Positions 1 through 12,700 of a stretch of 64,000 nucleotides of DNA are shown piece after piece. The stretch spans positions 32,001 through 96,000 of the forward strand of contig CBDCLE010000011.1 in the NCBI GenBank assembly GCA_965218585.1, in the 5' to 3' direction. The stretch is from Terriglobia bacterium (lineage in GTDB: Bacteria; Acidobacteriota; Terriglobia; 20CM-2-55-15). The notes under the pieces are model-generated. The model searched no databases and had not been told where the DNA came from. It was given only the letters and a program-made list of their open reading frames with translations. The stretch's first letter is position 1. Each line of letters begins with the position of its first letter. The position numbers and the translations under genes were made by a program.

Positions 1-29
1 GAAACGCTTAGTCGACTCAGGTAGCTCAT
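1..29 (-). CDS. 5' end of a gene running off the left edge (MSYLSRLSV...)
   Basis: ATG at 29 on the minus strand preceded by a GAGGAGAGG RBS; only 9 codons visible. Confidence 0.4.
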
Positions 30-167: not shown

Positions 168-1302
168 TCAATCCTCCACCGGGGGGAGGCGGGCGCCACT
201 GCCCGGTTCGGGGGCTTCTTCGGACACTACAGGTAGACGCAACGTCCCGATCCCGTCAATGCTGGCCGTGATCTCTTCTCCGGGTTGCAGGAATCGCTGC
301 TCACCGCGGACCGCTGTGCCGACGCCGGTCCCCCCGGACGTCCCGTTGTTGATCACGTCGCCCGGAAAGAGCGTCACGATCGAGGACGCATACTCCACCA
401 GTTCCCAAAGGGAGTGGATCATGTCGCCCCCGGTAGCTTCCTGCATCGGAGTGTCGCCGATGCTCAACGTCTGCCGGAGAATCTCCATGGGATTGCCGTA
501 GAATTCCTTCGGAATGATCCACGGCCCCATCGGGGCGAAGGTGTCGTGTCCCTTGGAGACGAACCAGTCCGACCGCAGCGGGTTTCCTCCCGGCGGCCGC
601 CCCCCCCCTGTCGGATATGTCGAGTGAGACCGTGTATCCGAATATATGGTCTTCGGCTTCGTCTGCGGGGACATACTTCGAGGCGCGCCCGATCACTGCT
701 GCGAGCTCGACTTCCCAATCGATTCGGGTGCGACCGTAGGGCAGAACAACAGAGTCGCCGTTGCCGATGACGGCGCCCTCGGGAGGTTTCAGGAAAAGAT
801 AAGGCACGCCGCGGTTTTCTCTGCGTCCGCGCCTGGCTTCGGCGCGTTCTTCCGGCGCCCCTTGTTCGTCCACGTGGCTGTAAAAATTCACGGCGGCGTT
901 AAGGATTTTCCCTGGATAGATAATCGGCGGCAGCGTCCGAAGAGAATCAACATCGTGTACATAGTCCGGTCGATTGCTGCCCGTGAGCTGTGTGTTCAAG
1001 ACCAGGTTGTTGACGATCTCGTAGAGGCGGGCCTTCAGACCATACTCATACCTGCTGATCAATTCCTTCATGTCGGCGGGCATAGGGAGCACCGGATACA
1101 TCCGGTTCGACTCCAGCGCCGCGTTCGCTTCATTGAGATCGACGATCAGGCTGTCGCGCAGGACGATCCCGATGCGCGGTGCTCCCTCGATTTCAAACGT
1201 TCCAAGTTTGAAGATCTCCGTTACATCCTCGGGCCCTTGGGCCCAGAGCGGGTCGGGAATGAGAAGAGCTACAAACAGAGTGAGAGTTAAAGTAAGTCGC
1301 AT
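168..1302 (-). CDS. Fumarylacetoacetate hydrolase family protein with N-terminal signal peptide (frameshift at the C9 run, 600-608)
   Basis: Motifs KILNAAVNF, PYLFLKP, DWEVELAAVIG, FGYTVSLDISDR in ORF 301..1302 continue as WFVSKGHDTFAPMGPWI, TLFPGDVINNGT in ORF 168..674; the frame switch falls in a homopolymer. Confidence 0.85.
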
Positions 1303-1432
1303 GTTGCTCCTTGTAGGTCACCGCCTTTCGGGCGGTACCATTCGAACACATCCGGAATTTGAATCGCTGTTTCTTCCGGGTTGTACTCCTCGAGAACCGG
1401 GCTGTCAAGACATTGGTGTGGTGGGCTCGGGG

Positions 1433-1510
1433 GACGCGTGGTCGAGAGACGGGAGTGAGTTGTTCTACATCGAACCCGGGAATCCGCCACCGAGACTGAA
1501 GTCAGTCCAG
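1433..1510 (+). pseudogene. Short remnant of a PD40/TolB-like propeller repeat
   Basis: Translates as DAWSRDGSELFYIEPGNPPPRLKSVQ, resembling the PLWGPDGRDLFY repeat of the kinase at 42138; no start or context. Confidence 0.4.
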
Positions 1511-1565
1511 GGCTGGGCAATATTGGCGGCAAGGAGGGTCCCGACCTCCTGGGCCCAGCCTCAGT

Positions 1566-2590
1566 TCAATACCGCTCCAGGCACTCGTAAGGGTGGACGA
1601 TGTTCTCGGGGCGCCACACGAAGTACCGAGTCAGGTCGAACGATTCTGTGAAGTATTCAGGATCGGTAACGGTTATTCGATAATCCAGGCGATCGTAGGT
1701 TTCATTCGGGATGAAGCGTTCGACCACGGAAAGGCTCTCGCTCTGCGGTACACCATCAGGATCAAAATACCCTGCGGCGATGTGATCGGTTCGAACCACC
1801 AGCGTATTGCCTTGCCATCGCCCCCGTGAGAAGCCAAACAGCGTGTGTTCTTCAGGTGGCACCGCGTCGGGATTCATATGAATGCGCCGGCGGCCATCGT
1901 ACTCTTCGATCCGCATTAATATGTCTTCATTCTGCCTTACAAATTCGATCGGAAACGGCGTGATCATCAGAAGCGGCGTTCCTTTCGTACCGCAGCGAAG
2001 CAACGAATTGTCGAGCGGGTCCCACTCGGCAACGACTGCTTCGGCGGCGGCAGTTAGCGGATAGCCACCCTTGAACATCGGAAACGCGGCTGGATCGCTC
2101 ATGACCGTGCTCCAAACACGGAAGATTCCATCGGCCGCGGCGATCGCCGCTGCCGCGTTCGATTCATCGAACTCGCGGCCGACGAGATTGCCGCTCTTTC
2201 CCGCAGGGAAATAGGGATTGCGGGGGTTAAACGCCAGCTCGTAACCGCTTCCTAACAGGATATTGCGGCCATTCATGGCTGTAGGGTCTCTGCGCGATGG
2301 AGCACCGGCAACACTGATTCGGTCGCCGACAGCGATTAGCTCCGTGCTGAGTCCCCGATTACGCATGATGCTTACCGTAGGAGTCTCGATCGTCCATTCC
2401 AACGTTTCCCCGGATTCCTCGTCAACTTCCACCACGATTCGCCCGTGGGGATTACGCCATGACACGTCACTGACGACGCCGACAATCTCGACGGTCTTGC
2501 TGGCATCGAATATCGCGACAGTACTGTGGTGGCCATAGACGCTCCCTGCCAATACTACAGATCCTATTTAAGAGTGGCTACTTTCGACAT
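1566..2590 (-). CDS. DUF6152-like secreted protein fused to the unnamed Cys-bracketed domain (probable true start 2590, 1-bp frameshift near 2568)
   Basis: HHS...FD...GVV..V.W.NPH..I N-terminus typical of DUF6152; GGAGG RBS and ATG at 2590 give a signal peptide one base out of frame with ORF 1566..2552. Confidence 0.75.
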
Positions 2591-2736
2591 GTCGGTCCTC
2601 CCCCGGCTCGGTTATCCGTCTGGCTTAAGGCCGCAAGATAACAGAAATGGGCCGAAGAACAGCGGAAATCCTGTAGTTCGCCCTTTGGCACTCCCGCCTT
2701 TGCTTTGTACTCTTTGACGACGGGTCGGCGAGTTTC

Positions 2737-2759
2737 GTGCGGTCATAGACCGCACCTAC
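2737..2759 (-). repeat. GTAG-type REP element (GTAG-GTGCGGTC-TAT-GACCGCAC)
   Basis: Perfect 8-bp palindrome preceded by GTAG; identical copy at 46127-46149. Confidence 0.8.
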
Positions 2760-2761
2760 AG

Positions 2762-2810
2762 AAGAAGGCCCGAAGCACATCCGCTCCGGGCCCTTTCTGA
2801 AGATCATCCG
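2762..2810 (-). terminator. Intrinsic terminator-like hairpin, copy 1 of a 49-bp direct repeat
   Basis: Minus strand AAGGGCCCGGAGC-loop-GCTTCGGGCCTTCTT downstream of the 2835..3638 stop; 48/49 identical to 4663-4711. Confidence 0.7.
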
Positions 2811-2834
2811 AGATTCTGAATCCTGGCTGTCGAT

Positions 2835-3638
2835 TTACAGCGGAGTATCCGGATTCGCGATCGAACGCCACATATGCGCCGACGGGCTGTTGTCATAGCC
2901 CAAACCCTCCGCCGGCTGTCTGAACTGGCGCCCCACGATATCCACAAACGGATCCAAGGTTACTTCCACCCCCTCTTCGAAGGAGTACAGGTCGTTGACC
3001 GTGACCTGACGTGGCAGCATATACCACTCATGGTTGCGAACAAACGCGTAGTTCGCCTGGAGCTGCGGTGTGGGTTCGTAGTCGTGTCCAAAAAGTCTGT
3101 GGTACAAGTCAGGGTAGAAATATCCAGCTTCCTCGTCGGTGTAGAACCGCAGTACCTGATGGTTCCGGAGTGCGAAAGCCACTTGTTCGGAAACATAGGG
3201 TGCGTACAGGTCCGCTCCCCAAAAACCATGGTCCACGCGCATCAGGCACTGGACGGTATCGTGGATGAGACAGGCGAAGACGACTTCTTCCGGCATACCT
3301 TCTTTCAGTGCCAGATTGGCGCTCTGCAGGCAGTGGTCTTGCGCTGCAAGCCGGTGTTCAAAGAAGTCAAAGAAGGTTGGTTTTTCAGGTAATGGCTCCA
3401 GTCTTTCAACCTTCGAGCCATCAGGGGTAACGAACAGGCGACCGACTCCCCTGCGATAGTGCCGCGTTGTGATCTGTGCCTCGATTTCCGCGACAGTCGG
3501 AAACTCGGCCTGCGTGCCGGCTTCCAGATTCTCGATCATGTACGTTTCCAGCGCTTCCGCCTTTGCTTCGTGGCTCATAAGGCTGACCGCCGTCGTGCCT
3601 CCGAGGCTGGCGATAAAATGTCGTCGATTGATCTCCAT
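2835..3638 (-). CDS. HD-domain metalloenzyme (PhnZ/MIOX-like ligand pattern) with a Tat-like signal
   Basis: DHCLQSA, LIHD, DHGFWGA, LRNH, VNDLY; N-terminus NRRHFIASLGG...AKA. Confidence 0.7.
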   Translation of the reverse strand: MEINRRHFIASLGGTTAVSLMSHEAKAEALETYMIENLEAGTQAEFPTVAEIEAQITTRHYRRGVGRLFVTPDGSKVERLEPLPEKPTFFDFFEHRLAAQDHCLQSANLALKEGMPEEVVFACLIHDTVQCLMRVDHGFWGADLYAPYVSEQVAFALRNHQVLRFYTDEEAGYFYPDLYHRLFGHDYEPTPQLQANYAFVRNHEWYMLPRQVTVNDLYSFEEGVEVTLDPFVDIVGRQFRQPAEGLGYDNSPSAHMWRSIANPDTPL

Positions 3639-3778
3639 GTTGTTCTCCGTCGATGAGGTTTCGTCCTACCCTGTTCGTATCCGAGTTCGCCCCATTCTGC
3701 CAGTCTCGGGTGGGTTCTTCAACGATTCTGATAAAGATACGGAGGATCTTCCCGAGGTCAGCATTGGTTTGCCGCAGC

Positions 3779-4609
3779 TCATCTTTCCCGAGCCACAGCA
3801 ATAGCCTGATTGAGGGCAGCATAGAACTCTTCCGGCGCGACGAACGGATGGGGTTCACCAGGCTGCCGCTGGGCCAGAGCGTCGGCACGGGCAAAGAGAT
3901 CGTCAATAAAAGGATGATTCGAAAGCCGAACTTCTATGCCTTCCATCGCCGAAATACGCTCCAGATCGTCGATATACCGCTCGACAGCGGCTGGTTCATC
4001 CGTCCGCAAGTTCATTCCGCCATGAAGATAAGCCGTGTGCCCTCTGCCCTGATCCATTACCGGGAACTCTATCGACACGACGCCGGGGGTGTGACCGGGA
4101 GTCACGTCAAACCGGAGTGTCGCATCACCCAGAGTCAGGGTTTCATCCTGTCCAATAACCCAGTCCCGCCGAGGCGCACGATCGCCCTGTTCGTTTTCGA
4201 TCAGGGTCCAATCTGGGGCTGTGGCACCGATAGTGGCACCCGTACGATCCTGCAGCTCTCGTCCCAGCCCGTAATGGTCACGGTGGCCGTGGGTAATGAT
4301 CACGTACTTGAGATCGGCGGGATCAAAGCCGAGTTGGCGAACGTTGCCCAGCAGGTACTCGGGATAACCGGCCATATCGAAAAGTGCGTCGATGAGGATC
4401 AGACCATCGCTTGTGGTCAGCAGGTAGCTGGAAACGAACTCGGTCCTCACGAAATAGAAATTGTCGAAAATCTTGAAGGGTTGGCGTCCCTGGTCATCAA
4501 GATCGAAGCTGTCAGGTATGCCACGCTGCGGCTGTGCGGTTAGGTTGCCGCTGATCAATAACGTACTGAAAATCGTCACGACGACGATACGCTTCATTCG
4601 GCTCGACAT
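3779..4609 (-). CDS. Secreted MBL-fold metallohydrolase, subclass B3-like
   Basis: PFKIFDNFYFV, HGHRDH, TPGHTPG, SNHP motifs; signal peptide; AGGAGG RBS before ATG 4609. Confidence 0.85.
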   Translation of the reverse strand: MSSRMKRIVVVTIFSTLLISGNLTAQPQRGIPDSFDLDDQGRQPFKIFDNFYFVRTEFVSSYLLTTSDGLILIDALFDMAGYPEYLLGNVRQLGFDPADLKYVIITHGHRDHYGLGRELQDRTGATIGATAPDWTLIENEQGDRAPRRDWVIGQDETLTLGDATLRFDVTPGHTPGVVSIEFPVMDQGRGHTAYLHGGMNLRTDEPAAVERYIDDLERISAMEGIEVRLSNHPFIDDLFARADALAQRQPGEPHPFVAPEEFYAALNQAIAVARER

Positions 4610-4662
4610 GTCATCCTCCTTCTCGTATCCATGTTGAGTTTTGCATAAAGACTCAGCGCACA

Positions 4663-4711
4663 AAGAAGGCCCGAAGCACATTCGCTCCGGGCCCTTTCTG
4701 AAGATCATCCG
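4663..4711 (-). terminator. Intrinsic terminator-like hairpin, copy 2 of the 49-bp direct repeat
   Basis: Immediately after the stop of 4716..5570; one mismatch to 2762-2810. Confidence 0.7.
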
Positions 4712-4715
4712 GAAT

Positions 4716-5570
4716 TTAACGTTCCGGCATCAGCTCCTTGATCCGTGCCTTGAACTCCGGATACATGGTTGCCGGTCCGCCCTCGGTCGCCTCCAGAGGC
4801 AATGAGTAAACCCCAGCCGCTTCCAGTTCGTACGGATTCTCGCCTGGAAAATAATGCGGCACGAAACCCGGTTCCCGGTCGACTTCCGTCACTACGGTAC
4901 ATGGATACGGCGGCACCTGCTGATTCCGTTCCCAGAGGAACTCGCCTGTTCTGAAGAGAGGCTCCTCAAGGTAGATTGGATCGTAAGTGATCGTCGTCCA
5001 CGTGATGACGTCGTTGTTGCGGATCAGGTACTCGACAACCTCGGCGCGATCGCTTCGCGGGAGACCGTTTCGACGGATATAGTCTTCTTTGAGATGTGTC
5101 GTATGGATCCGCAACACATCGCCCACCCAGGTGCCGGTTGAGAAACCGGACCACGTGTGCGGTTCGTTCGGGCCCGGATGCGGGCGGCCGTCCATGTAGA
5201 TAGGACGGTCGACCGACCGCAGCCATTCCATGTGGTACGCCGTGATATTCCGGGTCACCGGATCGATTTCCGCAGTGATGTAAGGATCCGAAGGCCCGCG
5301 GGTGATGTAGTCCACGCCGTGGGGGCGGCACTGCCATTCCGGCAGGGACTGGATCGAGGAATCCCAGAGTTCGGCTCGGGCACGGGACGAATCATTGATG
5401 GGCATCCCCATAAACTCACCGAGTTCCGGCCCGCTGGCCCGTTCGTCCCGGTCCTCGTCAAAGACGGGTCCCCATTGGCCTGAAAGGTCCATCTGGGCAA
5501 ATGCCGGCACGCCTGCAAGTAGCGTGATAGCCAACAACATGCCGAGATTCCTGACTGACGTAATATTCAT
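4716..5570 (-). CDS. Secreted hypothetical protein (unnamed Cys-bracketed domain), paralog A
   Basis: Signal peptide ending AFA-Q; motifs QCRPHG, RPIYMDGRPHP, WSGFSTGTWVGD, RRNGLPRS, DPIYLEEP, PYPC; GGAGG RBS. Confidence 0.85.
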   Translation of the reverse strand: MNITSVRNLGMLLAITLLAGVPAFAQMDLSGQWGPVFDEDRDERASGPELGEFMGMPINDSSRARAELWDSSIQSLPEWQCRPHGVDYITRGPSDPYITAEIDPVTRNITAYHMEWLRSVDRPIYMDGRPHPGPNEPHTWSGFSTGTWVGDVLRIHTTHLKEDYIRRNGLPRSDRAEVVEYLIRNNDVITWTTITYDPIYLEEPLFRTGEFLWERNQQVPPYPCTVVTEVDREPGFVPHYFPGENPYELEAAGVYSLPLEATEGGPATMYPEFKARIKELMPER

Positions 5571-5595
5571 CTAGTCCTCCTGTGCAATGTTGTTT

Positions 5596-6393
5596 TTACT
5601 CGTAGGCTGAACACGGAGTCGGATTCCAGTTCGAATCATCCGGTTCCTTCTTATAGTGGGTACTCTGCATGTATCGTCGGGTCAGGTAGAGAGGATCCTC
5701 ATAGAATGCCGTCAGCACCAGCCACGAATCGGGGTCGAAACCTGCGACGCTGGGCTCATCAAACGTAAAGAGAAACTCCGTCATCTCTGTCTGATTACTG
5801 TATGGAACGCCGTTGCGACGGAGATAGCCCATACGCATGTGGTCGGTAACGACTCTCAACCGGCCGGCCGGTACCGAACCGGGCTCCCGGCCTCCCCGAG
5901 CGCGCAACCATTCCGCTCGGGAGAAGCCCTGCCAGGAATCATCATCGGGGGCGGCCATCGAGTCGTCGAAGTGGAGGAGCCGCGTCTGCGTTCCGGCATC
6001 GGTGTCGATCCGAAGTGTGTTTTCGTCTTCCCACGTGATATTGAGCCGTCCAGGAATCCGCATGACGCCGCCAGCGCCGTAATACCGGCACTCTTCGCCG
6101 GCCGCCAGGTCGTCATCCGGGTCCCACGCATCGGCAATCTCCCGCGCCGCCGGTGTCATGGCGGTGCTCTCATAGTCACCCTTAGAGGGAACGACCATCC
6201 GGTGCCGCCAGCCTTCGGTGACGACCGACACCCAGGTGCCGGTGATGTCGATCGGCGGGTCTTCCATGGCCGGCCCCGGAGGCGGGCCACCCCTTTGGGC
6301 AAGCACGTCAGTGGGAACAGTAAGCAGGAGTCCTATAACGAGCGTCAAGGCAAAGTGACTCCCATGGAGAGTTCTGGAATTCATATTATTCAC
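5596..6393 (-). CDS. Secreted hypothetical protein, divergent member of the same family
   Basis: Signal peptide ending VLA-Q; ECRYYG, WQGFSRAEW, LRRNGVPYS, EDPLYL, PTPC; overlaps the upstream gene. Confidence 0.8.
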   Translation of the reverse strand: MNNMNSRTLHGSHFALTLVIGLLLTVPTDVLAQRGGPPPGPAMEDPPIDITGTWVSVVTEGWRHRMVVPSKGDYESTAMTPAAREIADAWDPDDDLAAGEECRYYGAGGVMRIPGRLNITWEDENTLRIDTDAGTQTRLLHFDDSMAAPDDDSWQGFSRAEWLRARGGREPGSVPAGRLRVVTDHMRMGYLRRNGVPYSNQTEMTEFLFTFDEPSVAGFDPDSWLVLTAFYEDPLYLTRRYMQSTHYKKEPDDSNWNPTPCSAYE

Positions 6394-7489
6394 CTCTCCC
6401 TTCGACGAGGCTTCGATATACTGCTGTCACGAAATCCGTTGTCGTCCACTGGCCACTATCGGCACCATAAAGACCGTCGTAAGCCTTGGTGGGCCGTTCT
6501 TCGAGAACCTGGTCCAGGGACCAGCCCCGATTGATCATCTCCTGGATGTTGTTGCGAATGATCGTCACCATGTCCCGGTAATAACCCACGTCTGCGGAAT
6601 CGCTGAGCCGGCCGCTACCTGGAATGACCGACGTACCCCCTTCGGTACGGAATTCGGGAATGGCAGTTTCAAGGACCCAGTTGAGCGCATCAAGGACACC
6701 ATCGATGCTGCCACCGTTCGCCAGATCGATGATGGGATACGACGTCTGCCTGAAGAAATCCCCCGTCACGATCACGTCCGACCGGGGTATGTAGACCAGG
6801 GTATGACCGCCGGTGGTTGCCTGAGGCATATGGATCATGCGGACGCCGTCGCCGTTGAAGAAATGGCTGATCTTGTAGCTTGTCCCGTAATACGTGTCGG
6901 TCGGAAACATCAGGTAGTTCAGACCGTCCTCGGCCATGTCGAAGAGGACTTCTTCATGGGCGTAAATACTTGCTCCCTGGCCCGCATCCCGGATACTGCC
7001 GGTGACATTACCGCCGACGAATGTCTGTCCGGATTCCCGTATGACCTGATTGCCACCGACATGACTGGGTTGCGAAGTCGTGTTGATGATGTAGCGGACT
7101 GGCTTCGGAGGGGAGTAGCCGTCCCGATAGGCCAGAATGGCCAGTCGTCCCTCGGCACCCCAGTTGTCGATGCCCGCCCAGGCATGGGTCTGGGCCTGGT
7201 TCTGCATGTGGTGGATTGCGGATATCGTTTCCAGGACTTCATCGGCCATCGCGGCCGTCCCGGAGTCGACGAGCAGGACGCCGTCGGGGCCGATCGAAGC
7301 CGTGATGTTGCTGCCGGCGCCGGCGAGCATGTAAATCGGTCCCCGGACCCAGACGACGTCGATCGGCGACTCCTGAGCCTGGACGACCCTGATGAAGGGG
7401 AGGACGCCCAGAACGACGGCCAGCAATACCGGCAAAGGCCTCCCGAGCCGTTTGGACTGTGAGTGTTGGTTTTTCATTCCTGTCTCCAA
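6386..7489 (-). CDS. Secreted MBL-fold (cyclase-like) protein with a degenerate metal site
   Basis: GAGSNI..SIGPDGVLLVDSG, INTTSQPSHVGGN (for THxHxDH), TGD, NGGSIDG, VIPGSG (for PGHG). Confidence 0.8.
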   Translation of the reverse strand: METGMKNQHSQSKRLGRPLPVLLAVVLGVLPFIRVVQAQESPIDVVWVRGPIYMLAGAGSNITASIGPDGVLLVDSGTAAMADEVLETISAIHHMQNQAQTHAWAGIDNWGAEGRLAILAYRDGYSPPKPVRYIINTTSQPSHVGGNQVIRESGQTFVGGNVTGSIRDAGQGASIYAHEEVLFDMAEDGLNYLMFPTDTYYGTSYKISHFFNGDGVRMIHMPQATTGGHTLVYIPRSDVIVTGDFFRQTSYPIIDLANGGSIDGVLDALNWVLETAIPEFRTEGGTSVIPGSGRLSDSADVGYYRDMVTIIRNNIQEMINRGWSLDQVLEERPTKAYDGLYGADSGQWTTTDFVTAVYRSLVEGRGE

Positions 7490-7516
7490 ATTGTTCTCAA
7501 AATATCTAAGCGGTAT

Positions 7517-7536
7517 CCCGGTGGAATGCGGGCTAC
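7517..7536 (-). repeat. Short GTAG-type REP-like hairpin (GTAG-CCCG-CATTCCAC-CGGG)
   Basis: GTAG followed by a 4-bp stem in an intergenic spacer; single copy in the window. Confidence 0.3.
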
Positions 7537-7574
7537 GATTCGTTCAATAGATCATTGCAGAATTCAAGTTGGCC

Positions 7575-8432
7575 TTATCGCTCCGGCATCAATTCCTTGA
7601 CCCGCGCTTTGAACTCCGGATACATCGTTTCCAGGCCACCCTGGGTCGCTTCGAGCGGCAGCGAGTAGACACCGGCGGCTTCGAGGGCGTACGGATTCTC
7701 TCCAGGAAAATAGTGCGGCACAAACCCCGGCTCCCGGTCGACTTCCGTGACCACAGTGCATGGATACGGCGGCACCTGCTGGTTTCGCTCCCAAAGGAAC
7801 TCGCCCGTTCGGATCAAGGGTTCTTCCAGGTAAATCGGGTCGTAAGTGACCGTCGTCCATGTGATGACGTCGTCGTTGCGAATCAGGTATTCAACCACTT
7901 CGGCGCGATCGCTTCGCGGCAGACCGTTTCTTCGGATGTAGTCTTCCTTGATGTGCGTTGTATGGATCCGGAGAACGTCGCCCACCCAGGTGCCGGTCGA
8001 AAAGCCCGACCACGTGTGAGGCTCGTTCGGACCCGGATGCGGACGCCCATCCATATAAATGGGCCGGTCTACCGAGCGTAACCATTCCATGTGATACGCG
8101 GTGATATTCCGGGTCACCGGATCGATTTCTGCCGTGATATAGGGATCGGAAGGCCCGCGGGTGATGTAGTCCACGCCATGGGGCCGGCACTGCCATTCCG
8201 ACAGCGACTGAATCGAGGAATCCCAGAGGTCGGCCCTGGCGCGTGACGCATCGTTGATGGGCATCCCCATGTACTCGCCCAGTTCGGGGCCTCCAACGCG
8301 TTCGTCGAGGTCTTCGTCCCCGACCACCGGCCCCCACTGGCCTGAAAGATCCATCTGCGCGAATGATGGGATTGCGGTCAGGGCGATCGTGGTGAGGCAG
8401 AAGACGAGTACTCTAAAAGGACTAAATCTCAT
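7575..8432 (-). CDS. Secreted hypothetical protein, paralog B (near-identical to 4716..5570)
   Basis: Mature part differs from paralog A at roughly 18 of 260 residues; different signal peptide; AAGGAG RBS. Confidence 0.85.
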   Translation of the reverse strand: MRFSPFRVLVFCLTTIALTAIPSFAQMDLSGQWGPVVGDEDLDERVGGPELGEYMGMPINDASRARADLWDSSIQSLSEWQCRPHGVDYITRGPSDPYITAEIDPVTRNITAYHMEWLRSVDRPIYMDGRPHPGPNEPHTWSGFSTGTWVGDVLRIHTTHIKEDYIRRNGLPRSDRAEVVEYLIRNDDVITWTTVTYDPIYLEEPLIRTGEFLWERNQQVPPYPCTVVTEVDREPGFVPHYFPGENPYALEAAGVYSLPLEATQGGLETMYPEFKARVKELMPER

Positions 8433-8639: not shown

Positions 8640-9977
8640 ATGGGCACCGAGAATCGGAACGAAGCTGTGCAACTTGAAGCACCGCCGGCCGACTGGACGT
8701 TGGCGATGCGCGTTCTCTTCCGTTTCTGTCTTGTGTATTTCGCTCTGTTTACACTTGCAACGAAAATTTCAGGGGGCCTCGTTCTTCTTCCTGATCGTTC
8801 GATCACGAGCGTGGGCATCCTATGGCCGCTACGGGGAGTCACTTTCTGGGTAGGGACCCACATCTTCGGCATCACCGAACCTCTCGAGTACACGGGAAAT
8901 AGCTGGGACACGAACTTCTACTGGGTACAGGCGGCGTGGGTGCTCTTCGTTGCCGTGCTGGGGGCCGGTGCCTGGTGCGCTCTGGACACCCGACGCCGAA
9001 ACTACGTGACGCTGCACAAGTGGATGCGGGTTTTCGTTCGGCTCGCGATCGCCTCACAGATGTTCGAGTACGGAATAACCAAGGTGATACCGGCACAGTT
9101 TCCGGCGCCTTCGCTGATTACGCTGGTGACGCCGGTGGGAGGTATCTCGCTGCAGGGACTGCTATGGACTTTCGTCGGGTCTTCTTTGTTGTACCAGATT
9201 CTGACGGGAGTCATTGAAGTGGCGGGCGGACTCCTGCTGCTCCACCATCGCACGACGCTGGTCGGCAGTTTTGTCGTCCTTGCGAGCATGATGCAGATCT
9301 TAGCGTTCAACATGCTGTATGACGTGGGAGTGAAGATGGTTACCTTCCACCTGATCCTGATGACGCTCTTCCTGATGGCTCCGGAGTGGACACGGCTTCG
9401 GGATTTCTTCTTCGGAAATCGTTCGGCCCCGCCGCCGGGGGAAGGGCGCTTGTTTCGCACCCACCGGGCCAACCGCGTTGCGGTGGCCGCCCAGATCCTG
9501 TTTGGTCTCTATGCGGTGGGTGTCTACACAAACATCACCTGGCTCTTCTGGAATGAAGGCGGCGGAGGAAGCCCCCGGTCAGTTCTCTACGGGATCTGGG
9601 ATGTCGAGCAGCTTGCCATAAACGGGGAAGTGGGCCCCGCAATCTTCAACGACTACGATCGCCAGTGGCGGCGCGTCATTTTTGACGAACCCGATGAAAT
9701 GGTGTTTCAACGCACCGACGATTCGTTTTCCCGGTATGGGGTTTCAATCGACGATAACAGCAATATCCTTGTGCTGAACAAGGGGGAGAGTCGGACCTGG
9801 CGTTCCGGTTTCATCTTCCAGCGCCCGGCCGAGGATCAACTGATTCTCGAAGGAGACATGGACAACTACAGTATCCGCATGGAACTCAGGCTGATTCAGC
9901 CCGACACGTTCCAACTTCTCAACAGCCATTTCCGTTGGGTTCGCCCCCCCGATCCTGGAACCGAGTCAACCCGCTAG
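8640..9977 (+). CDS. DoxX-like multi-pass membrane protein
   Basis: Many TM segments; YGITKVIPAQFP, GLLWTFVGSS..YQ..TG..E, FNMLYDVGVK motifs; soluble C-terminal domain. Confidence 0.7.
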   Translation: MGTENRNEAVQLEAPPADWTLAMRVLFRFCLVYFALFTLATKISGGLVLLPDRSITSVGILWPLRGVTFWVGTHIFGITEPLEYTGNSWDTNFYWVQAAWVLFVAVLGAGAWCALDTRRRNYVTLHKWMRVFVRLAIASQMFEYGITKVIPAQFPAPSLITLVTPVGGISLQGLLWTFVGSSLLYQILTGVIEVAGGLLLLHHRTTLVGSFVVLASMMQILAFNMLYDVGVKMVTFHLILMTLFLMAPEWTRLRDFFFGNRSAPPPGEGRLFRTHRANRVAVAAQILFGLYAVGVYTNITWLFWNEGGGGSPRSVLYGIWDVEQLAINGEVGPAIFNDYDRQWRRVIFDEPDEMVFQRTDDSFSRYGVSIDDNSNILVLNKGESRTWRSGFIFQRPAEDQLILEGDMDNYSIRMELRLIQPDTFQLLNSHFRWVRPPDPGTESTR

Positions 9978-9993
9978 GATCCCTCGATCCAGA

Positions 9994-10470
9994 CTATTGC
10001 CTCTCATACACCACCGTGCTCTCAATTTCTTCTCCGGCCGCGTTCCTTTCGGCGGTGACTGTTGTCAGCGTCTGCCCATCCGAAGAGACCGTGGTCCGCG
10101 CTTGGGCAACCTGGCCGCCATCGACCTTTATGACGACGTCGTAGGTATAGTCGTCGATCCTGGTGTAAGCATTGGTGAGCACATAGTCGACACCCTGGAC
10201 CGCGTAGTCTCTCCCATCGAACTGACCGGCCCATTCCAGGTGAATCACGCCGCCCCGTTCTCCAACGATGTCGTAGATGACCTTGAGACCATCTCCCGAG
10301 GGCTCGATCCAGCAGGTCGTTCTCTTAAAGCGAGTGGAATTCTGTTGAGACTTCTCCGTGTTGAGCTCCCAGGTTCCGAACAAGGGGACAGGCACTTGAC
10401 CCTCCAGAGCGGAAGGCAGCATCATTGTGGCTAGGATTATCAGAAAGGCAGGAGTACGCCAGGTCGACAT
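9994..10470 (-). CDS. Secreted lipocalin-like hypothetical protein
   Basis: Signal peptide; GTWELNTEKS, FDGRDYAV, VSSDGQTLT, VYERQ pattern. Confidence 0.7.
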   Translation of the reverse strand: MSTWRTPAFLIILATMMLPSALEGQVPVPLFGTWELNTEKSQQNSTRFKRTTCWIEPSGDGLKVIYDIVGERGGVIHLEWAGQFDGRDYAVQGVDYVLTNAYTRIDDYTYDVVIKVDGGQVAQARTTVSSDGQTLTTVTAERNAAGEEIESTVVYERQ

Positions 10471-10542
10471 GAGGCAAAGGATCACACTCTCTCCCTGGCC
10501 TGTCAACAGGTGCCTCTCCCAGAGAAACTGTCTGTTATCAAC

Positions 10543-10971
10543 ATGAGGACCGACCCATCAAACCTGACGAGGGAAGCCCCCCACCCCATCGTCTTCTTCG
10601 ACGGGGTCTGCGGCCTCTGCAACGGTTTCGTGGACTTCATCCTGGCCTGGGACCCGGGAGGAAGGTTTCGTTTCGCAGCCCTACAGGGCGAGACTTTCAG
10701 GGGCGTCGATCTTGGGGAGGCACGAGCTGGGCAACCGACGAGCATAGTCCTCTGGGACAACCACCGGGCTTACATAAAATCCGATGCCGTCCTGCGAATA
10801 TTCGAGGGGCTCGGTGGCGGATGGGCTCTGCTGACCCTGCTACGCCTCGTTCCAGCCTCCGGCCGGGACTTCGTCTACGATCTCGTCGCCAGCAACCGCT
10901 ACCGTTGGTTCGGCAAGCGGGACACCTGCCGTCTGCCGTCCCCCGAAGAGCGGGACCGCTTCCTGTCCTAA
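10543..10971 (+). CDS. DCC1-like thiol-disulfide oxidoreductase (DUF393)
   Basis: FFDGVCGLCN, FRFAALQ, RDFVYDLVASNRYRWFGK. Confidence 0.9.
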   Translation: MRTDPSNLTREAPHPIVFFDGVCGLCNGFVDFILAWDPGGRFRFAALQGETFRGVDLGEARAGQPTSIVLWDNHRAYIKSDAVLRIFEGLGGGWALLTLLRLVPASGRDFVYDLVASNRYRWFGKRDTCRLPSPEERDRFLS

Positions 10972-11074
10972 GGGCAGAGACCGGACTCCCCTCGCATTTC
11001 CCCCAACCGTGCGCTTCTGGGATTCCCCGGGTTTTCCAATCAAGATCGAAAAATTCGCCTCTGACGCAATCCTC

Positions 11075-11105
11075 TTGACTTACGGCCTGTCATAAATCTA
11101 ATAAT
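11075..11105 (+). promoter_or_regulatory. Putative sigma70 promoter for the EAL/HDOD gene
   Basis: TTGACT followed about 18 bp later by AT-rich TAATAAT. Confidence 0.35.
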
Positions 11106-11182
11106 TATAGGAATTATTGGTATGCGGGCCGTGATCGAATGATCCGGTTGCCCAGAATCAGATCAAAGAGCAGGGAAACGAC

Positions 11183-12385
11183 ATGGAAAAGACCTACGTT
11201 AGTCGAAAGCCGATATACGAGTCCAACGTCCGGCTGCACGCGTATGAACTCGTCTCACAACCCCGTGAGGGTGTAAATTCATTCCCGACCGTCGCGGACC
11301 TTGAAACGGTCCGTGCAGACCTGGGAACCTTTTCTGAAGTAGGGCTGGATCAGATCGTCGGAGATCAACAGGCCTTTGTAGACCTCTCCCGTGAGGCAGT
11401 TCTGGCGGGATACTGCCTTTCACTCTCAAAAAACCGCGTCATCCTGGAAATCCTCGACGACATCGTTTCCGACCCCGAGCTCCGGGACGAGCTTCGGGAC
11501 TTGTCTCAGATGGGATACAAGATCGCGGTCGGAAACACGACCCCGGAGGCCCTGAATAGAAACGGCCGGTCAGTGGCAGACATCGTTCGCATAGACGTCC
11601 AGGGTCTGGATGAGGACGAGGTTGCCGAACAGGTGGGCGCGTTTTCCCGTCTCAGCGTCCGTCTTCTGGCGGACAAAGTCGACACATACGAACAGTTCGA
11701 GTTGTGCAAGAGACAGAAGTTCGATATGTACCAGGGACATTTCTTCTGCACGCCACGACGCAGGGGCACCGAAATACCCGTCAACCGCCTCGCCGCGGTA
11801 CGCATCCTCGGAAAACTCCAGAACCCCGATCTCGGCCTCGACGAGTTGGAGTCCGCAATCAGCACAGACTTGGCACTCAGCTATAAGCTGTTGCGTTTCG
11901 CCAACTCTGCGTTTATCGGCCTCAACAGGACTGTTGAGTCAATCAACCACGCGGCCAAGATGGTAGGAATCGAACGGATTCGCATGTGGGCAAGCCTTCT
12001 CATGTTCTCAAAGATGGAAGACAAGCCGCGTGAACTGATGATTACAGCGATCGTGCGCGCTGCGATGTGTGAACGGCTGGCTTCTTCAGCGGACGAAGGT
12101 CCGAGAGAGACATTCTTCACAGTGGGCCTGCTCTCGGTTCTCGATGCATTGATGGACCGGCCCATGGGGGAGGCGCTCGAGGAGTTGCCGGTTTCAGACG
12201 AAATCAGGTCGGCACTGATAGACCGGGAGGGATCTCGTGGCGAGGCGCTTCGGTGTGCTCTCGCTCAGGAACGTGGGGACTGGGACCAGGTCCAGTATAG
12301 AGATCTTCGCCCGATGACGATCCGGAGCCACTATTTGGATTCTCTCGGTTGGGCGCGGCGGATTAGTGAGGGGTTGAATATTTAA
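11183..12385 (+). CDS. EAL + HDOD domain protein (YuxH/PdeH-like; EAL motifs partly degenerate)
   Basis: YVSRKPIY...AYELV, ILEILD, LLADKVDT, YQGHFF; HDOD motif DLALSYKLLRFANSA. Confidence 0.85.
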   Translation: MEKTYVSRKPIYESNVRLHAYELVSQPREGVNSFPTVADLETVRADLGTFSEVGLDQIVGDQQAFVDLSREAVLAGYCLSLSKNRVILEILDDIVSDPELRDELRDLSQMGYKIAVGNTTPEALNRNGRSVADIVRIDVQGLDEDEVAEQVGAFSRLSVRLLADKVDTYEQFELCKRQKFDMYQGHFFCTPRRRGTEIPVNRLAAVRILGKLQNPDLGLDELESAISTDLALSYKLLRFANSAFIGLNRTVESINHAAKMVGIERIRMWASLLMFSKMEDKPRELMITAIVRAAMCERLASSADEGPRETFFTVGLLSVLDALMDRPMGEALEELPVSDEIRSALIDREGSRGEALRCALAQERGDWDQVQYRDLRPMTIRSHYLDSLGWARRISEGLNI

Positions 12386-12700
12386 GGGGCACCCGCACGG
12401 TCTGATGCCTGCCGGATCGTGTGACCGGTACTTCAGAAGATTTCGCTCGGTCGTTCATTCAGACATCCTGTCTGAACGACCGGCGACGCTCGCAATCATC
12501 CTGATTGCAAGCCCTCTTTGGACTCAACGATACTTTTCGGTAAGTGCTGACGGGCCCGCAGTCAGGAGACTGCGGGCTGCAAAGGTCGTTCGGCCAGGAT
12601 GGCCGTCTGAACGACCGCCGCAGGTCTTCTCGTTCACAATCGAGCGAAACCAGCCGTCGCCAGAAAATGCTGATGACCTGCAACGAAATGGGCAAGCAAC

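Follow-up and report, generated by a model that had tools for sequence, protein, structure and literature searches.

An amplified cassette of barrel and metallo-beta-lactamase-fold proteins within an array of accreted, putatively exported genes in a Terriglobia bacterium

Introduction

The closest structural relative found for the central protein family of this study is the chlorothalonil hydrolytic dehalogenase Chd (PDB 6uxu), a metallo-beta-lactamase (MBL)-fold protein that binds a single catalytic zinc ion via Asp116, His117, His257 and Asn216 (PMC12784990). One member of this family is encoded in a 64,000 nt window of the genome of a Terriglobia bacterium (genome G000; GenBank assembly GCA_965218585.1, contig CBDCLE010000011.1, positions 32,001 to 96,000 of the forward strand), to which all positions below refer. 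There, an array at positions 168-8432 includes, in the 5'-to-3' direction, genes for barrel A, an MBL, barrel B, a second barrel A, a B3-like MBL, an HD protein, a DUF6152 fusion and an FAH-superfamily protein. The first-pass annotation of this DNA described eight co-oriented minus-strand genes, which were confirmed, and read all eight as one extracytoplasmic catabolic module. The present analysis indicates that the array is not one pathway, and that exported genes have accumulated next to a single copy of a conserved barrel-MBL-barrel cassette.

Other described systems are relevant to parts of the array. The MBL fold is also found in PqsE, which has a protein-binding role, and a GxW motif on the first strand is characteristic of the calycin superfamily of barrels. 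The chemistry of FAH and HD diiron enzymes is known from inside the cell and, to our knowledge, the characterised bacterial members of the FAH superfamily are cytoplasmic.

A conserved cassette of two barrels and an MBL-fold protein

Scans against Pfam and NCBIfam recognised FAH (PF01557), DUF6152, HD-like and two MBL-fold matches in the array, and gave no match for three of the eight genes. These three had been annotated as stand-alone copies of one unnamed domain. Their homology was borne out, but a fourth copy of the domain, referred to here as a barrel, forms the C-terminal half of the DUF6152 fusion, and two of the stand-alone copies (7575-8432 and 4716-5570) arose from a single recent duplication and share 88% identity overall.

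Counting paralogues at 150 bits or more and neighbours within 4.5 kb, the genome was found to hold 20 MBL genes of the cassette type, 29 genes for barrel A and 18 for barrel B. Barrel A lies near 19 of the 20 MBL genes and barrel B near 18, and every barrel B gene (18/18) is beside an MBL gene. The exact co-oriented order A-MBL-(DUF6152)-B, to which positions 8432-5596 conform, is kept at 13 of the 20. Across 16 A/MBL/B triples the pairwise identities co-vary (rho 0.57-0.72, Mantel p 0.0005), although tandem copies on one contig inflate this test. Altogether, 117 barrel-family open reading frames (ORFs), 72 DUF6152 ORFs and the 20 MBL genes make up ~5% of the called genes.

Outside this genome, 58 cassette loci were identified in Acidobacteriota, Gammaproteobacteria and Rhodospirillales, many of them kin of one another and including close kin of the genome studied here; the closest named ones, whose MBL is 72-75% identical to that in the window, carry the label Acidobacteria or Terriglobia. 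Barrel A, MBL and barrel B are all present at 53 of the 58, a further four are cut by contig ends, and one has the MBL alone. The order is A-MBL-(DUF6152)-B at 51 loci and A-D-B-MBL at two. Barrel A and MBL are fused at 17 of the 58 loci and once in this genome and, among the matches listed for the fusion, 119 of 120 homologues show at least 95% coverage. The gene order, the fusion and the co-divergence of the three proteins are established with high confidence. Strong matches to the cassette MBL were confined to the family among 30 relatives, and barrel B was detected in 1 of 120 other genomes of the phylum (E <=1e-40, with no more than 23 candidates scored in each), so the distribution of the cassette looks patchy. 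No publication on the cassette or on DUF6152 was found in a search that excluded most subscription journals and bioRxiv supplements. Among the MBL-fold hydrolases, the trio represents an undescribed and strongly amplified variant that is accompanied by barrels, and a function is proposed for it below.

The first-pass annotation had regarded the unnamed proteins as partners of the MBL, and this holds in that the A, MBL and B protein types form a conserved unit. However, the trio it had picked out (4716-5570, 5596-6393 and 6386-7489) is not that unit. The conserved trio is 7575-8432, 6386-7489 and 5596-6393, and the gene at 4716-5570 is a genus-level duplicate of barrel A, present at all three orthologous loci examined in the same genus (genomes G001-G003) and at neither of the two in other genera (G006, a single contig, and G016). 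The two A copies are 93% identical here and 91-92% identical within G001-G003, and in the tree the upstream copy falls into the clade of the downstream ones. Gene conversion between them is possible on these grounds, although tree support is weak, the tree of A copies being mostly unresolved.

Linkage of the remaining four genes

For the FAH, HD, B3-like MBL and DUF6152 fusion genes, co-location with the cassette in other genomes was not upheld. The orthologous loci of G001 and G003 read A-MBL-B-A-FAH with an intact FAH gene, that of G002 reads A-MBL-B-A, and those of G006 and G016 read A-MBL-B. Given that both flanks are syntenic in G001-G003, and that G001 and G003 pass directly from the A duplicate to FAH, positions 1313-4715, which hold the B3-like, HD and DUF6152 fusion genes, are specific to this genome among those examined. 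Neither an HD nor a B3-like gene was found at any of the 58 outside cassette loci, and an FAH gene was found at two, both leaderless on frame inspection. Similarly, none of 86 HD loci (L126-L211, 469 kb) contained a barrel, MBL, DUF6152, B3-like or FAH gene, and a barrel lies within 1.5 kb of the FAH gene at only 2 of 19 other FAH loci, namely those of G001 and G003. FAH orthologues also occur in G007, G013 and G017, genomes without a strong cassette-MBL match. In G006, the orthologues are scattered, with the cassette at 1.00 Mb, HD at 0.50 Mb, FAH at 3.88 Mb and the DUF6152 fusion at 4.59 Mb.

Features within the array point in the same direction. A 54-nt hairpin, present in only two copies in the genome, flanks the B3-like and HD genes. 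A promoter-like element of its own precedes the FAH gene and was found at 9 of 20 FAH loci including this one, mostly in unrelated contexts. Barrel A and FAH are separated in both G001 and G003 by a hairpin followed by a T-run. A consensus promoter/terminator scan made no more calls than on shuffled sequences, and missed both 54-nt hairpins and the FAH element. GC content at third codon positions in the middle genes is below that of the cassette but inside the genome range (percentiles 0.09-0.35), and hence provides no evidence of transfer.

A single module of eight genes would account for their common orientation and probable export and for the FAH gene adjoining the cassette in G000, G001 and G003, and mis-assembly at the B3-like/barrel junction is no objection to it, as a contig assembled in a second study spans that point. 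However, co-location was not found elsewhere (58 cassette, 86 HD and 19 other FAH loci, with FAH providing the only exceptions), the G006 orthologues are dispersed, the array is broken by internal hairpins and a separate FAH promoter-like element, and the assembly shows frameshifts in two of the eight genes. One module is therefore very unlikely. We are highly confident that the other four genes are not linked to the cassette; they are separate units, some of them probably inserted in this lineage.

Fold and metal ligands of the MBL subunit

As judged by the AlphaFold2 model of a paralogue that is naturally fused to barrel A, the MBL domain is most similar to Chd (Z 27.2, root-mean-square deviation (rmsd) 2.9, 263 residues aligned), with a fitting C-terminal helical extension, and is further related to 8d2z (Z 26.1), then to B1 enzymes, alkylsulfatases and PqsE. 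Sequence identity with Chd is 24%, and Chd appears in the excerpts of its description (PMC12784990) as a homodimer, with no barrel partner mentioned in them. Its zinc ligands would correspond by motif position to D120, H121 and H263 of the canonical MBL set. A model for the quinoprotein relay system zinc metallohydrolase (TIGR04559) was considered and rejected (44.4 bits against a cut-off of 280).

At the canonical ligand positions H116, H118, D120, H121, H196, D221 and H263, the MBL in the window has T, Q, S, H, T, D and S, respectively. Thus, two of the seven are retained, the fewest in the genome, and unlike Chd this copy lacks D120 and H263. Ligands were scored in 18 of the 20 paralogues, after two split ones were dropped, and all seven are kept in nine. 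Both metal sites are present in these nine, only the D120/H121/H263 site in four, only the other site in one, and neither in four. In 119 A-MBL fusions the corresponding numbers are 73, 18, 7 and 21. The Chd-like site lost here is kept in the orthologues from G001-G003 and G006. The description of this protein as a ligand-less MBL therefore suits the window copy but not its family, and on sequence comparison the loss is a property of this copy. This pattern of ligands is also held with high confidence.

The low number of ligands in this MBL, together with the five cassette genes flagged as split genome-wide, could be taken as a sign of amplification that is for the most part neutral or in decay, with a functionless copy in the window. 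This is considered extremely improbable, as the genes for barrel A, MBL and barrel B are all unbroken here, with orthologues in two genera at 69-85% identity, and the splits may be assembly indels, for which the contig evidence is mixed.

Structure of the barrels

The AlphaFold2 model of barrel A (pLDDT 88.9, pTM 0.86) is an antiparallel barrel (residues 1-191) with a helical tail. Its best fold matches are nanoKAZ (Z 7.3, rmsd 3.9, 112 residues aligned), CRBP, FABP and nitrobindin, with Foldseek E values of at least 5e-3; as Z is below 8, where a common arrangement can suffice, the likeness to calycins is only suggestive. A GxW motif on the first strand is invariant in 132 A sequences (G6/W8) and in 25 B sequences (G20/W22), and a pair of cysteines is conserved in both. 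Barrel A has the N-terminal GxW of the calycin-type barrels (CRBP/FABP, nitrobindin, NanoLuc/nanoKAZ and avidins) and, in its model, an antiparallel barrel that may be akin to theirs, but differs from them in its inserts, Cys pair, helical tail and fusion or linkage to an MBL, with Z of at most 7.3 and ~10% identity. It has no Pfam, NCBIfam or PDB sequence match; a search of PDB sequences gave none at E up to 10, and an ESM Atlas search returned unnamed clusters only.

The model of a natural A-MBL fusion reaches a pTM of 0.90 over 582 residues and, despite a low-confidence linker (pLDDT near 52), this suggests a defined packing of A on the MBL domain. A predicted complex of A, MBL and B, with B as the partner, scored 0.90, and a control in which the MBL was replaced scored 0.82, hence no weight is placed on it either for or against binding.

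Proposed function of the cassette

It is somewhat probable that the cassette encodes a periplasmic ligand-capture and hydrolase complex, diversified by duplication and located amid accreted exported genes. In this proposal, barrel A would dock on the MBL domain, the barrels would capture a small molecule, hydrophobic or aromatic in nature, which the MBL would hydrolyse at a one- or two-metal site in the manner of Chd and the alkylsulfatases. Duplication to ~20 copies per genome would widen the range of substrates, and copies without a metal site, including that in the window, would serve for binding or as a scaffold only. Ligand capture, hydrolysis and the kind of substrate are the tentative parts of this proposal.

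The chemistry could instead reside in the DUF6152/barrel pair, with the His-His pair at the start of the mature DUF6152 and possibly the histidine of a PH motif binding copper or nickel beside a barrel-held substrate and the MBL acting mainly as a scaffold. The DUF6152 fusion exceeds the gathering cut-off of PF19649 (65.7 against 27 bits). HH[SAG] was found at the domain start in 67, and PH in 66, of the 72 DUF6152 ORFs of the genome, and in 14 ORFs inspected HH[SAG] directly follows a leader-like stretch. A barrel lies within 900 bp of 55 of 71 DUF6152 ORFs, with 13 fused to a barrel, and DUF6152 follows the MBL at 33 of the 58 outside loci. Together with the frequent loss of MBL ligands, this fits such a role. 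However, no DUF6152 gene lies between MBL and B in the window cassette or its orthologues, and half of the scored paralogues keep the full set of MBL ligands. The His-His start may resemble the histidine-brace copper sites, and the ESM Atlas match of DUF6152 to MamS/MamX (0.77) is a weak lead only. Catalysis by DUF6152 is accordingly thought unlikely.

A further alternative is non-catalytic periplasmic binding or relay, for scavenging or sensing, in conjunction with TonB-type outer-membrane importers. It draws on the calycin-like fold, on PqsE being among the MBL fold matches, and on the TonB-type genes, which are the commonest recurring neighbours of the cassette (16 and 8 of 78 loci). The enrichment is weak, with 3-4 of the 20 cassettes here near one of ~16 receptor genes, and both metal sites are kept in 73 of the 119 fusions. 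Binding or relay alone is thus quite unlikely.

Several observations also weigh against a ligand-capture and hydrolase complex amid accreted genes, in addition to the tandem copies, the kinship of the outside loci and the modest fold scores given above. Both metal sites are missing from 4 of 18 paralogues, from 29 of 56 outside copies, a sample skewed by the degenerate query used to collect it, and from 21 of 119 fusions, which is much for a purely catalytic subunit. When neighbours were clustered over the 78 cassette loci, TonB-type receptors and lineage synteny emerged, and no pathway was named. G001 and G003 retain the FAH gene beside the cassette, and three other cassettes are flanked by unrelated FAH genes. 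Finally, the three middle genes may have been inserted here or lost in the relatives.

Export signals

Export was called by heuristic Sec and twin-arginine translocation (Tat) rules, not SignalP, on genes from crude calling. Sec-positive calls were obtained for both copies of barrel A, barrel B, the cassette MBL, the FAH protein and, when read from ATG 4609, the B3-like protein; the HD protein is Tat-positive. The claim that all eight genes carry export signals stands for these seven, but in the DUF6152 fusion a frameshift lies between the leader and the rest of the protein. Among homologues, positive calls were made for 111 of 120 of barrel A, 110 of 119 of the A-MBL fusion and 115 of 120 of FAH, against 0/480, 0/476 and 0/480 internal control segments, respectively, and an extracytoplasmic location of the proteins is supported by these heuristic calls. 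Of 3905 crudely called genes, 27% are leader-positive and soluble. There are eight co-oriented runs of at least six such genes in the genome, two of them of length 9, and the mean longest run in shuffles is 4.9. The run of exported genes is thus beyond chance, yet not unique, and islands of exported genes are a feature of this genome.

The FAH, HD and B3-like proteins

The FAH protein belongs to a subfamily of ~382 aa that is at least 72% identical over the best 120 matches (P0241-P0360), some labelled Gemmatimonadaceae or Gammaproteobacteria. It shares PF01557, matched above the cut-off, and the metal-binding motifs with keto-acid hydrolases such as 8gsr, HpcE and FAHD1; D[WY]ExE is present in 120 and KGxDTF in 104 of the 120 best homologues, and the best PDB match (E 1e-33) is the L-2,4-diketo-3-deoxyrhamnonate hydrolase 8gsr. 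It differs from these enzymes in having a Sec-like leader, as do most of its best homologues, and in falling below every equivalog cut-off. On these sequence grounds, a widespread, stand-alone FAH subfamily bearing signal peptides is a finding separate from the cassette. A second leader-bearing FAH paralogue is present in this genome (G000 C11:18794). No publication on a signal-peptide-bearing periplasmic acidobacterial FAH was found, with most subscription journals outside the search.

The HD protein has the six-ligand set of PhnZ and TmpB (H102, H126, D127, H137, H160 and D216), conserved in most of 150 homologues. PhnZ and TmpB are its best PDB matches (E 0.009-0.05), but it is distinguished from them by a twin-arginine N-terminal extension and by scores far below the NCBIfam cut-offs for PhnZ/TmpB (20.4 against 214.6 and 17.9 against 300 bits). 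There are 972 cluster representatives that match it at E <=0.001. Among close orthologues 85 of 87 keep the RR, as do 21 of 27 more distant ones. Export by Tat is plausible only, because residues 2-21, in a set chosen by N-terminal match, are conserved at 61% against 45-52% in the catalytic core, unlike Sec leaders. The closest relatives (76-77% identical) are in other genera, which hints at lateral gain. An HD paralogue without the twin-arginine segment is encoded elsewhere in the genome (G000 C1:64889), and many metagenome orthologues lie among MacB/FtsX, PadR, two-component and PP2C genes, which gave no functional lead. No publication on twin-arginine HD diiron oxygenases was found, again with most subscription journals outside the search.

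The B3-like protein shares HxHxDH and both downstream histidines with the B3 metallo-beta-lactamases (CAR). Its best model is NF000469 (E 4e-43; 147.6 bits against a cut-off of 500), and assignment to subclass B3 by NF033105 was rejected (128.9 against 240 bits). Each of four same-genus genomes has 33-37 matches to it, and six tblastn hits were obtained here, by a different method; the number per genome suggests a role other than resistance.

Reading frames and flanking sequence

The coordinates of all features are listed in Table 1. The FAH gene is broken into ORFs 301-1302 and 168-674, and its orthologues are single ORFs. Of two contigs from the same sample, one of low depth lacks the extra base and the other has it. 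The DUF6152 fusion ORF, starting at TTG 2552, is leaderless, and an ATG at 2590 preceded by a ribosome-binding site lies in a different frame. In one contig of low depth, 2 bases are missing at 2567 and ATG 2590 is thereby brought into frame, and another contig agrees with the window; the orthologue in G006 has a normal leader. For both breaks, the evidence from contigs of depth 2-3 is thus mixed, each break being absent in one and present in another. For the B3-like gene, a leader is seen when translation starts at ATG 4609 but not when it starts at 4708.

Table 1. Features of the array and their positions in the 64,000 nt window.
Feature	Position	Strand	Description
Barrel A	7575..8432	-	Cassette gene 1; Sec-exported (heuristic) calycin-like beta-barrel with Cys pair and helical C-terminal tail; no Pfam family
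Cassette MBL-fold subunit	6386..7489	-	Start TTG 7489 or ATG 7477; H121 and D221 only, of seven canonical ligands
Barrel B	5596..6393	-	Last cassette gene; start GTG 6393 or ATG 6384; distant A paralogue (26-28%)
Additional barrel A	4716..5570	-	Mature part 93% identical to 7575-8432
54-nt hairpin, copy 1	4663..4716	-	Directly 3' of barrel-A duplicate; terminator-like, short U tract
B3-like (CAR-like) MBL-fold protein	3779..4609	-	Exported (heuristic); HxHxDH and both further histidines; outside cassette
HD-domain protein	2835..3638	-	Six PhnZ-type ligands, conserved twin-arginine N-terminus; stand-alone elsewhere
54-nt hairpin, copy 2	2762..2815	-	94% identical to copy 1
DUF6152 fusion	1566..2590	-	DUF6152 (His-His start) fused to third barrel subtype; frameshift near 2567 parts leader from ORF
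FAH promoter-like element	1380..1408	-	TTGACA-17 nt-TA(A/C)AA
FAH-superfamily gene	168..1302	-	Signal-peptide-bearing; frameshift at G-run near 600-609

A ninth co-oriented gene starts at position 29 (window 1-29, minus strand; L028:10539-12030) and encodes an M20-family peptidase with a signal peptide, split by a frameshift; this stretch is unmatched in G001 and G003. The right flank (8640-12385) encodes a membrane protein, a small exported protein, a DCC1-like oxidoreductase and a 400-aa protein and, with the cassette, is syntenic in G001-G003 and partly in G006 and G016. A 79-nt palindromic intergenic repeat at 12437-12515 has 40 matches genome-wide, with similar copies in G001 and G003.

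Conclusions

The eight-gene array is itself of little interest, and its significance lies in the cassette and in two of the protein subfamilies found beside it. A broader interpretation is possible, if doubtful, in which barrel A, MBL, DUF6152 and barrel B would constitute an undescribed class of periplasmic multi-subunit metalloenzymes, with the barrels presenting substrate to the MBL and His-His metal sites. The ~5% of genes involved would then be a diversified family for extracytoplasmic processing of small organic molecules, and the exported FAH and Tat-type HD proteins, unlinked to it, would share a periplasmic catabolic lifestyle.

Scores of genes are given over to this cassette in uncultured Acidobacteriota and in some Gammaproteobacteria, and its barrel has no Pfam model. 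An MBL-fold enzyme with an obligate barrel subunit, occurring in metal-liganded and ligand-less forms in one genome, is a directly testable target. The signal-peptide FAH and twin-arginine HD subfamilies, if exported, would represent two intracellular chemistries moved to the periplasm.

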